Source: Polyangiaceae bacterium | GTDB lineage: Bacteria; Myxococcota_A; Polyangia; Polyangiales; Polyangiaceae | DNA: 30,086 bases | Reading direction: 5' to 3' | Assembly (NCBI GenBank): GCA_025453595.1 | Contig: JALOQB010000032.1 | Location: 1-30,086 of the forward strand | Shown here: positions 28,342-29,484 of the stretch, one piece after another | How the letters are laid out: each line of letters opens with the position of its first letter | How positions within the stretch are numbered: position 1 is the first letter of the stretch | Translations under genes and position numbers: made by a program | Notes under the pieces: model-generated | Told to the model about the DNA's origin: nothing | Seen by the model: the letters and a program-made list of their open reading frames with translations, nothing else | Databases searched by the model: none

Positions 28342-29484
28342 TCAGAACGGGGCGGCGGCGGCGGCGGGAGGGACGCGGGGGAGGCGCAGGCGGAAGAGCG
28401 CCCCCCGGGGCGAGGCGTCGTGCACCGAGAGCAGGCCCCCGAGGCGGTCGACCGCCAGCTTGCAGAAGGTGAGGCCGAGGCCCTGGTTGTAGCCCCGGAG
28501 GTCGGCGGAGAGGCTGGCGAACTTGTCGAAGATCAACCCCTTGGCGTCCTCGGGGACACCCTGGCCATCGTCGATCACCTCGACCTCGACCGCCTCGTCC
28601 GAGTCGCGGAGCACGAGGCGGATCACGTTGCGCGCGTGGCGCATGGCGTTGTCGAGCAGGTTCTCGACGATTCGCATCAGCAGCGAGGCATCGGAAGAGA
28701 TGGGGGCCGCGGCGCCCTCGCAGGTGAGCTGGAGCCCGTAGATCTCGGCCAGCGGGGTCTGGTTACGGAGCAGCTCGTGGGCCAGCGAGAGCGGATCGAC
28801 CGGCGCGAAGGCGACCGGGAGCTCGGCGTTCTCGAGGCGGTAGACGTCGAGGAAGAGGCGGATCATGCGATCGAGGCGCTCCGCGGCGATCCGCGCGTCG
28901 CCCAGGCGCTCGCTCACCGCCGAGCCCGCCTGCCCCTGGCGCAGCTCGCGCATCACCATGTCGACGTTGAGGCGGATCGCCGTCAACGGGTTCTTCATGT
29001 CGTGGGCCACCAGCATGGCCAGCAGCTCCCGGAGCCGACGGGCCTGCATCTCCTCGGTGATATCCTCGACCAGCAAGAAGGCGAAGCGCCGGTCGCCCGA
29101 GTCAAACCCACGAAGCCGCAGCCGCACATCCCGGGGGACTTTCAGGTGCGCAAACGGGAACTGAAAGTGCAGATCGACCTGCAGCTCGCCGCCCCGGTGG
29201 GCGTAGCGCTCGAAGGCCGGCAGCAACCCGGAGGCCGCCGTGCACGGCGCAACCTCCCGGAAGAAGTGGCGCCCCATCACCGACTCGGCGGTCCGCTGCG
29301 CCAGCCGCTGCTCGTGCAGGTTGTAGCGCACCACCCGCCCCGCGGTGTCCAGCACCACGACGCCGATGGGCAACGCATCCAGCAGATCCGCCAGGAAGCG
29401 GTCCTCCTGCGAGGAGGTCAGGATCTGCTCGATCACCTGGGGCAGCAGGTTGGTGGTGTGATCCGAGTCGAGTCGATCGGTCAT
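28342..29484 (-). CDS. Sensor histidine kinase with an N-terminal photoactive-yellow-protein (PYP) domain, followed by HisKA and HATPase_c domains.
   Basis: The PYP domain 'VVRYNLHEQRLAQR...GRHFFREVAPCTAAS' matches PYP 'ILQYNAAEGDITGR...GKNFFKDVAPCTDSP'. Tyr, Glu(+4), Arg(+10) and the chromophore Cys(+27) keep exact spacing. The HisKA is 'AHDMKNPLTAI'. The ATP-binding domain has 'IDDGQGV' and 'GLGLTFCK'. Confidence 0.85.
   Translation of the reverse strand: MTDRLDSDHTTNLLPQVIEQILTSSQEDRFLADLLDALPIGVVVLDTAGRVVRYNLHEQRLAQRTAESVMGRHFFREVAPCTAASGLLPAFERYAHRGGELQVDLHFQFPFAHLKVPRDVRLRLRGFDSGDRRFAFLLVEDITEEMQARRLRELLAMLVAHDMKNPLTAIRLNVDMVMRELRQGQAGSAVSERLGDARIAAERLDRMIRLFLDVYRLENAELPVAFAPVDPLSLAHELLRNQTPLAEIYGLQLTCEGAAAPISSDASLLMRIVENLLDNAMRHARNVIRLVLRDSDEAVEVEVIDDGQGVPEDAKGLIFDKFASLSADLRGYNQGLGLTFCKLAVDRLGGLLSVHDASPRGALFRLRLPRVPPAAAAAPF

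Follow-up and report, generated by a model that had tools for sequence, protein, structure and literature searches.

Introduction

Photoactive yellow proteins (PYPs) are defined by homology together with a conserved Cys69. They are commonest in Myxococcota, where their origin has been proposed, and they tolerate the replacement of Tyr42 by Phe (Xing, Gumerov & Zhulin 2022, PMC9664959). The catalogue of Dohmen et al. 2025 (J Bacteriol, PMC12826048) comprises 984 PYPs and 153 multidomain proteins, including 15 proteins, predicted to be blue-light kinases, in which an N-terminal PYP is joined to HisKA/HATPase_c or to HATPase alone; one example, MBA2731661.1, has a PAS domain at 18-116 and a HisKA domain at 144-204. 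The transfer of PYP signals to downstream partners is an acknowledged gap in PYP biology (PMC12826048). Here we analyzed a 30,086-nt stretch (hereafter the window) of contig JALOQB010000032.1 from a soil myxobacterium of the family Polyangiaceae, in which a single open reading frame (ORF) on the minus strand (28342..29484, ATG start, 380 aa) encodes a PYP-domain histidine kinase, referred to below as the PYP kinase. Almost certainly, its N-terminal domain is a true member of the PYP family and the kinase to which it is fused is intact. Because this sensor domain is a true PYP relative, the protein is, as judged from its sequence, very probably a blue-light-regulated histidine kinase. The architecture is already known at catalogue level, and the present gene is a further member.

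Assignment of the N-terminal domain

When residues 1-153 were compared with all PDB sequences using phmmer, only PYPs, the PYP domain of Ppr and the PYP-derived FAST tags were returned at E 1.7e-14 to 2e-6. The best match was the Ppr PYP domain (1mzu, E 1.7e-14), Halorhodospira halophila PYP followed at about 5e-11, and the first non-PYP PAS domain appeared at E 0.09. The HMMER alignment to the PDB PYPs runs without gaps from residue 34 to about residue 85 at a constant offset of +12, pairing Y54 with Y42, N55 with N43, E58 with E46, A62 with T50, R64 with R52, F74/F75 with F62/F63, and V78-A79-P80-C81-T82 with V66-A67-P68-C69-T70. An earlier note on this DNA, made from the sequence alone, had claimed that the PYP pocket residues are kept with exact spacing, and the gapless placement of Tyr54, Glu58, Arg64 and Cys81 on Tyr42, Glu46, Arg52 and Cys69 bears this out. 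Its reading of an 'FFxxVAPCT' motif carrying the counterpart of the p-coumarate-binding cysteine also holds, as Cys81 falls on Cys69 in an identical VAPCT context in both the profile and the pairwise alignments.

The PYP-specific NCBIfam model TIGR02373 matched residues 34-136 over profile positions 21-120 of 124 with 67.5 bits (E 1.1e-18), compared with 38 bits for PAS_4 and 26 bits for PAS among the generic Pfam models on the same domain. An AlphaFold2 (AF2) model of residues 1-150 had a mean predicted local distance difference test score (pLDDT) of 85.6, exceeding 90 over most of the PAS core. In a Foldseek search of the PDB with this model the top 39 matches were PYP or FAST structures (E of about 5e-9, target TM-scores 0.65-0.83), followed at about 1e-6 by EcDOS, FixL, YF1 and other LOV domains. 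Membership of the PYP family can be judged on homology distinct from other PAS families, on conservation of Cys69 and on retention of at least one of Tyr42 and Glu46. The PDB phmmer and Foldseek searches both set the domain apart from other PAS families, Cys81 is invariant in the 32 distinct loci of the family described below, and Tyr54 and Glu58 are both present.

The simplest competing explanation is that the protein is a generic PAS-histidine kinase whose likeness to PYP is coincidental. Pfam indeed assigns nothing more specific than PAS_4/PAS, and the PYP equivalog model stays under its cut-off. Against these points, the PDB sequence searches return exclusively PYPs and the PYP-specific model clearly outscores the generic ones. 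Furthermore, the Y/E/C triad is missing from generic PAS repeats recovered in the survey of cluster representatives described below, which show patterns of the WAKY- and WATY- type. The earlier note had itself proposed that a profile alignment placing the cysteine outside the PYP pocket would speak for a generic domain; Cys81 lies inside the pocket, and the predicted fold is nearest to PYP. Taken with the conservation over 32 loci and the survey of cluster representatives, the PDB and Foldseek searches effectively refute this explanation, and we assign it a negligible probability.

Conservation of the pocket and census of the family

A search of 5.8 billion proteins yielded 37 proteins that match about 88-100% of the query, or fragments thereof, down to 35% identity, several of which carry the JGI label 'photoactive yellow protein'. 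The identical 380-aa protein is also found on the 23.5-kb JGI metagenome contig Ga0392395_0002738 and in the run assembly SRR12684587, and the nearest genome-resolved relatives, with 83-84% identity, are metagenome-assembled genomes (MAGs) of Polyangiaceae. Among GTDB species genomes, full-length members were found solely in Myxococcota MAGs (Polyangiaceae, Haliangiales, Kofleriaceae, Sandaracinus and Myxococcaceae).

Across the 32 distinct loci, all from Myxococcota MAGs, PYP positions 43, 46, 50 (Ala), 52, 62, 63, 67, 68, 69, 79 and 96 are invariant in all 32 (N43, E46, A50, R52, F62, F63, A67, P68, C69, F79 and F96 in PYP numbering), and this invariance of the pocket persists at overall identities as low as about 35%. 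Tyr occupies position 42 in 23 of the 32 loci and Phe in the other 9, with Glu46 retained throughout. About 9% of accepted PYPs carry Phe in place of Tyr42, and the family consensus residue at position 50 is Ala (PMC9664959; PMC12826048). The pocket pattern is missing altogether from two PAS-kinases that lie just beyond the family.

We also surveyed 1.84 billion cluster representatives (50% identity) with phmmer, which gave 127 matches at E <1e-10. Among the best 150 representatives, 45 have the layout of an N-terminal PYP followed by a kinase in fewer than 420 aa, with Cys69 kept in 42 of these, and another 45 are single-domain proteins shorter than 200 aa. Multi-repeat generic PAS proteins among the best 150, drawn in by summed scores, are without the Tyr/Glu/Cys triad. 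One of them, P0122 (4799 aa), has about 30 generic PAS repeats in tandem, none with the PYP triad, and ranks high only because the scores of its repeats add up. A different arrangement was seen in P0121 (1174 aa), in which a signalling region of the type found in methyl-accepting chemotaxis proteins is followed by a tandem array of four canonical PYP domains, all of which have Tyr42, Glu46 and Cys69. Within the 45 PYP-kinase representatives, Cys69 has been lost in three (to Ser, His or Phe; patterns FEARS, VEARH and YETRF) and position 42 is Val in two; such proteins are possibly neofunctionalised or decaying members.

The PYP domains of the family share 26-38% identity with published PYPs, which is within the known range of the PYP family, and in small neighbour-joining (NJ) trees they group by themselves. 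In an NJ tree of 142 PYP-type segments with 40 bootstraps, 41 of the 45 kinase-fused domains fell in one clade (best-clade F 0.74), which also takes in fragments, cyclase fusions, GGDEF fusions and the outgroup. We draw no conclusion on rooting from this tree because distances saturate and it is only roughly informative.

Kinase module and its junction with the PYP domain

The earlier note's statement that HisKA and HATPase domains follow the PYP domain agrees with the Pfam assignments on the 380-aa protein (PAS_4/PAS 31-145, HisKA 154-219, HATPase_c 265-370), of which HisKA and HATPase_c score above their cut-offs. The H, N, G1, F and G2 boxes of a class I HisKA kinase are all present. The H-box reads VAHDMKNPL and contains His161, with H161, D162 and P166 invariant in the family alignment (A3), and the N box (N275/N279), G1 (D305-G307-G309), F box (F319) and G2 (G335-G337) are intact and invariant in the same alignment. 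The full-length AF2 model has a pLDDT of 84. We take the protein to be soluble and cytoplasmic because no hydrophobic stretch typical of a membrane anchor was seen when its 380-aa sequence was read by eye.

In the AF2 model, the last PYP strand (132-141) passes directly into a helix (143-182) that bears His161, with a one-residue break at 163; the second helix of the dimerization and histidine phosphotransfer (DHp) domain spans 188-218 and is followed by the catalytic and ATP-binding domain, and the DHp hairpin is visible. His161 lies just 20 residues past Asp141, and free-standing PYPs end directly after the equivalent of the 132-141 strand. The junction reads E140-D141-I142-T143, in which Glu140 and Asp141 are invariant in the alignments (A2 and A3) and the next two positions are I/V/C and then T/S. 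This E-D-I-T sequence belongs to the 'DIT' class of junctions between PAS domains and coiled coils that FixL and YF1 exemplify, reportedly described by Möglich and colleagues in 2009 and by Diensthuber and colleagues in 2013 (both cited in PMC6798134). Because the last PYP strand runs via the conserved E-D-I-T into the DHp helix, we infer from the model that signalling would proceed along the coiled-coil linker and not by way of a diffusible partner.

Chromophore supply, response regulator and the case for light sensing

It is probable that the PYP kinase binds p-coumarate and is regulated by blue light. Several observations weigh against this reading. First, the 67.5 bits scored with TIGR02373 do not reach the equivalog cut-off of 143.05 bits, and the PYP kinase is consequently not filed in that narrow equivalog class. 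The model was seeded with four single-domain PYPs; it recovers just about 20% of accepted PYP homologs (PMC9664959). Second, relative to H. halophila PYP, the domain carries the replacements Thr50 to Ala, Tyr98 to Phe, Met100 to Lys and Trp119 to Phe. According to established PYP mutagenesis, positions 50, 98, 100 and 119 of PYP tune the absorbance maximum and the recovery rate, not chromophore binding; at position 100, relatives of the PYP kinase have Pro, Glu or Asp.

Third, genes for chromophore supply and for a response partner are missing from the neighbourhood. Neither a tyrosine ammonia-lyase (TAL), a p-coumarate-CoA ligase (pCL) nor a receiver domain was found by Pfam in any sizeable ORF of the 30-kb window, and the PROSITE motifs for AMP-binding enzymes and for lyases with the 4-methylideneimidazole-5-one (MIO) group were absent from its six frames. 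The earlier note's remark that the window has no TAL or pCL gene is thus upheld. There was likewise no TAL (PF00221) or AMP-binding gene in L001, the locus corresponding to the window, in the 10 kb past the window end; no TAL, pCL or receiver gene within 10 kb in the gene tables of six relatives; and no PROSITE MIO signature in any of the 32 family loci with 10-kb flanks (about 586 kb in total). The AMP-binding motif gave one weak match over the same flanks, in L050, which is probably due to chance, and none of the 32 loci has a convincing AMP-binding ligase within 10 kb. A response regulator (PF00072) was found neither in the window nor within 10 kb in seven loci. The PYP kinase is an orphan kinase by the Pfam gene tables of these seven loci, a tblastn screen with CheY at E 1e-5 being insensitive; adjacency of a regulator is typical of such kinases but not defining. 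Finally, the literature searched contained no report of spectroscopy or phosphorylation of a direct PYP-kinase fusion.

The locus therefore has no canonical pyp-pcl-tal operon, which is not required of a PYP. In predicted pyp operons TAL occurs in 5% and pCL in 32%, and uptake of p-coumarate from the environment has been proposed (PMC12826048). Given these frequencies, the lack of linked TAL and pCL genes is normal for PYP genes.

The same observations could be accommodated by a PYP-descended domain that no longer senses light, or never did, serving as an apo or alternative-ligand sensor, for example a thiol/redox sensor through Cys81 or a chemosensor that would signal, via the kinase, how much hydroxycinnamate is to be had from plant litter. 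TAL or pCL is linked in 0 of the 32 family loci, compared with an adjacent pCL in about 30% of PYP genes generally, and neofunctionalised PYP domains have already been proposed for methylobacterial Ppr (PMC9664959). The few family representatives without Cys69 (FEARS, VEARH and YETRF) point in the same direction. However, most accepted PYP genes are also without linked TAL or pCL (PMC12826048), and the entire p-coumarate pocket, including Glu46, Arg52, Phe62, Phe96 and the Ala67-Pro68-Cys69 turn, is invariant in the 32 loci. Such invariance of the whole pocket, and not of the cysteine alone, is hard to explain without the canonical chromophore. We therefore regard loss of light sensing as unlikely, although it is the alternative to which we give the most weight.

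The upstream YfcH gene

The gene immediately upstream of the PYP kinase is cut by the window end. Its partial product scores 242 bits with TIGR01777, compared with a cut-off of 207, and the full-length gene in L001 encodes an Epimerase domain (13-231, the Rossmann part) followed by DUF1731 (264-310), which together identify it as a YfcH-family member of the short-chain dehydrogenase/reductase (SDR) superfamily. In L001, the gene order past the window end is GluQRS-like gene, Ser/Thr kinase, YfcH and PYP kinase. Reading of the raw sequence showed tcat at 29481-29484 of the plus strand, corresponding to ATGA on the minus strand, in which the TGA stop of YfcH overlaps the ATG of the kinase. Because of this overlap and of a GGGAGA sequence 5 nt before the kinase ATG, the two genes are likely co-transcribed. 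A terminator-like GC-rich hairpin (29506-29529, minus strand), followed by GGATCTTTTC, lies in the last YfcH codons about 20 nt before the kinase start; it is probably a chance occurrence, since two such sites were found in the region and 0.7 were expected.

One could imagine YfcH and the kinase as a two-gene system, in which the SDR makes or modifies the chromophore or ligand, or is itself the regulated output. The ATGA overlap implies translational coupling at the window locus, and in five close lineages (the window/L001, L005, L008, L011 and L012) YfcH immediately precedes the kinase gene. Cinnamoyl-CoA reductases share the broad extended-SDR fold with YfcH, which offers no more than a lead. 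Yet YfcH is directly upstream only in relatives with at least 66% identity: it is absent from that position in L003/L014 (62%), in L007/L013 (64%) and in all of the approximately 25 more distant family loci, whose upstream genes include ones for a CDP-alcohol phosphatidyltransferase, a metallopeptidase and an HDOD protein. Further upstream, the GluQRS-like gene keeps its synteny across the same range as YfcH, which points to gene order being inherited and not to selection acting on the pair, and all-against-all clustering of the flanking ORFs of the 32 loci revealed no partner conserved across the family. The overlap noted earlier was thus corroborated, but the pairing that the earlier note called unusual does not extend to the family as a whole. 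Because YfcH neighbours the kinase only in its closest relatives, we read the pairing, from these gene-order comparisons, as inherited gene order in one sublineage and not as a functional system, and YfcH is a lineage-specific operon neighbour that, we infer, is not part of the sensor. A two-gene system is very unlikely.

Proposed mechanism

On balance, the explanation that probably accounts best for the data is a homodimeric cytoplasmic kinase whose sole input is a PYP-type PAS domain sensing blue light through p-coumarate. p-Coumaric acid, either activated as its CoA thioester by enzymes whose genes lie elsewhere or obtained by scavenging plant litter, would attach to Cys81. Tyr54 and Glu58 would hydrogen-bond the chromophore phenolate, and Arg64 would shield it. 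Blue light (about 435-465 nm, as in other Ala50-type PYPs) would isomerise the chromophore, Glu58 would protonate it, and the beta sheet and the N-terminal cap would rearrange. This rearrangement would alter the register or the twist of the coiled coil in the dimer and, as happens in FixL and in YF1, an engineered LOV kinase, tip the balance between autophosphorylation and the phosphatase activity that acts on an unlinked (orphan) response regulator. Because Met100 is replaced (by Lys), as in Ppr, dark recovery is predicted to be slow, which would give a long-lived signalling state like that of Ppr.

Features of the locus and surrounding genes

The features of the PYP kinase and of the adjoining YfcH gene are collected in Table 1. 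The N-terminal cap corresponds to that of PYP and is about 5 residues longer (MAFFT alignment with H. halophila PYP residues 1-25). The window has a G+C content of 70%, and the ORF shows the bias in G+C at third codon positions expected for a real gene.

Table 1. Positions of the PYP kinase, its domains and key codons, and of the adjoining YfcH gene, within the 30,086-nt window.
Feature	Coordinates	Strand	Basis
PYP-domain histidine kinase, complete gene	28342..29484	-	ORF list, Pfam, AF2 model
N-terminal cap, residues 1-33, two predicted helices	29386..29484	-	AF2 helices 7-21 and 27-37, low to moderate pLDDT
PYP-type PAS core, residues 34-141	29062..29385	-	PDB sequence matches, TIGR02373, Foldseek, conservation
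PAS-core pocket residues Tyr54, Glu58, Ala62, Arg64, Phe74, Val78, Ala79, Pro80, Cys81, Phe109			
Tyr54 codon TAC	29325-29323	-	Direct read
Glu58 codon GAG	29313-29311	-	Direct read
Arg64 codon CGG	29295-29293	-	Direct read
Cys81 codon TGC, predicted p-coumaric acid thioester site (= Cys69)	29242..29244	-	Direct read, alignments
E140-D141-I142-T143-E144 junction, 'DIT'-type PAS-to-coiled-coil motif	29053..29067	-	Alignments, model
HisKA/DHp, residues 154-219, phospho-acceptor His161	28828..29025	-	Pfam HisKA 1.4e-08
His161 codon CAC	29004-29002	-	Direct read
HATPase_c catalytic domain, residues 265-370	28375..28692	-	Pfam HATPase_c 2.3e-20
GGGAGA, Shine-Dalgarno-like, 5 nt 5' of kinase ATG, within YfcH 3' end	29490..29495	-	Direct read
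YfcH/TIGR01777 SDR gene, 3' two-thirds, cut by window end	29481..30086	-	NCBIfam TIGR01777

Downstream, and convergent with the PYP kinase across a 39-bp gap, a 1098-aa Ser/Thr kinase with a long non-kinase N-terminal region is encoded at 25006-28302 (plus strand). In 8 of the 32 loci (L001, L008, L012, L018, L020, L026, L028 and L030) a Ser/Thr kinase is encoded no more than 6 kb from the PYP kinase, and Ser/Thr kinases alone recur among the clustered flanking ORFs. As such kinases are very abundant in myxobacteria, we considered this recurrence to be chance and rejected the Ser/Thr kinase as a conserved partner.

Pfam assignments in the window further include a Uma2 endonuclease fragment, a major-vault-protein homolog, a LysR regulator, an AAA_15/AAA_21 ATPase, two MscS-like channels, a large AAA protein, MeaB, an HhH-GPD glycosylase, a PSD/cytochrome c protein and the 1098-aa Ser/Thr kinase already mentioned. 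The bacterial major vault protein homolog (4539-7751, minus strand, 1070 aa) matches MVP_shoulder at E 1.4e-23 and carries Vault_3 and Vault_4 repeats. The 547-aa AAA_15/AAA_21 ATPase (9768-11411, minus strand) is of the OLD/AbiEii-like type often found in defence systems, and the adjoining ORFs at 8779-9906 (plus strand) and 8857-9771 (minus strand) have no Pfam match. The genes for MscS-type channels at 11732-13027 and 15785-17053 (both plus strand) flank a gene for a 1056-aa AAA_16 ATPase at 12975-16145.

Comparison with known systems

The value of the PYP kinase is practical rather than conceptual, and nothing in it conflicts with current understanding. With about 20 residues between the photosensor core and the phospho-accepting His, a PYP-kinase fusion of this kind is the simplest natural system that could give an enzymatic readout of PYP output. 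Alongside the LOV- and phytochrome-based kinases of optogenetics, it would provide a light-regulated module built on p-coumarate, and for myxobacteria it suggests that uncultured Polyangia have a blue-light input to two-component signalling.

The PYP kinase has the same architecture, size class and predicted blue-light input as the 15 catalogued PYP-HisKA/HATPase_c proteins, and in both cases the kinase is predicted to relay the signal to a response regulator. None of the strings FQFPF, LRLRGF, FSFPFP, RLAQR, EDITEE and LLIEDVS, which are typical of the Polyangia clade, occurs in the supplements of PMC12826048; of six further strings, only YNLHE, YNAYE and YNRYEE matched, the passages shown being from other taxa with no family member among them, and alignment gaps could hide some matches. 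Because the clade-typical strings match no family member in these supplements, the Polyangia lineage is likely a branch unlisted in the set of Dohmen et al.

To our knowledge, Ppr of Rhodospirillum centenum is the only characterised PYP kinase. Its PYP domain (1mzu) is the best sequence match (E 1.7e-14, 38% identity), and Ppr is without Met100 and has a slow photocycle, Met100 being also replaced in the PYP kinase. The two differ in that a bacteriophytochrome (PAS-GAF-PHY) is inserted between PYP and kinase in Ppr, whereas in the 380-aa PYP kinase the PYP core abuts the DHp helix. The PAS-GAF-PHY module that marks Ppr and Ppd is absent from the latter, in which no GAF or PHY match was found and about 20 residues separate the PYP core from His161. 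With H. halophila PYP, the domain shares the fold, the pocket residues Tyr42, Glu46, Arg52, Cys69, Phe62 and Phe96 and the VAPCT turn. It differs in its identity of 26%, its fusion to a kinase, the lack of a pyp-pcl-tal operon, its score under the TIGR02373 cut-off and a loop (98-102) that is two residues longer.

FixL and YF1 (4gcz), the best non-PYP structural matches besides EcDOS, have in common with the PYP kinase the geometry of a PAS domain followed by D-I-T, a continuous helix and DHp. Their cofactors, haem and flavin mononucleotide, and their pocket residues are unrelated, and the likeness concerns signal transmission only. Closer in the sensor itself are the PYP-class III nucleotidyl cyclases P0125, P0164 and P0165, which have the same PYP subtype, FP[YF]P..PRDV loop and (E)DIT junction but a cyclase output. 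Their sequences show Cys69, Glu46, Phe42, the FPYPYNRV.RDV loop and an (E)DIT/EIT junction. P0152 and P0198 combine PYP with a GGDEF domain, and the cyclase and GGDEF fusions are all about 330-360 aa long, the three cyclase fusions being of about 350 aa. A 345-aa PYP-cyclase of Persicimonas caeni appears in a published operon table (PMC12826048). Judged by their sequences, the PYP-class III cyclase fusions would be candidate p-coumarate-based photoactivated cyclases.

It is also conceivable, but rather improbable, that the Myxococcota-restricted PYP-kinase clade stands near the ancestral form of PYP, such that the pocket arose in a PAS-DIT-kinase and free-standing PYPs were excised later. Consistent with this, the clade keeps the DIT junction of PAS kinases, it is never linked to TAL or pCL, which suggests a scavenged chromophore, the generic-PAS outgroup joins on the side of the clade in the rough NJ tree, and the same PYP subtype is found with kinase, class III cyclase and GGDEF outputs.

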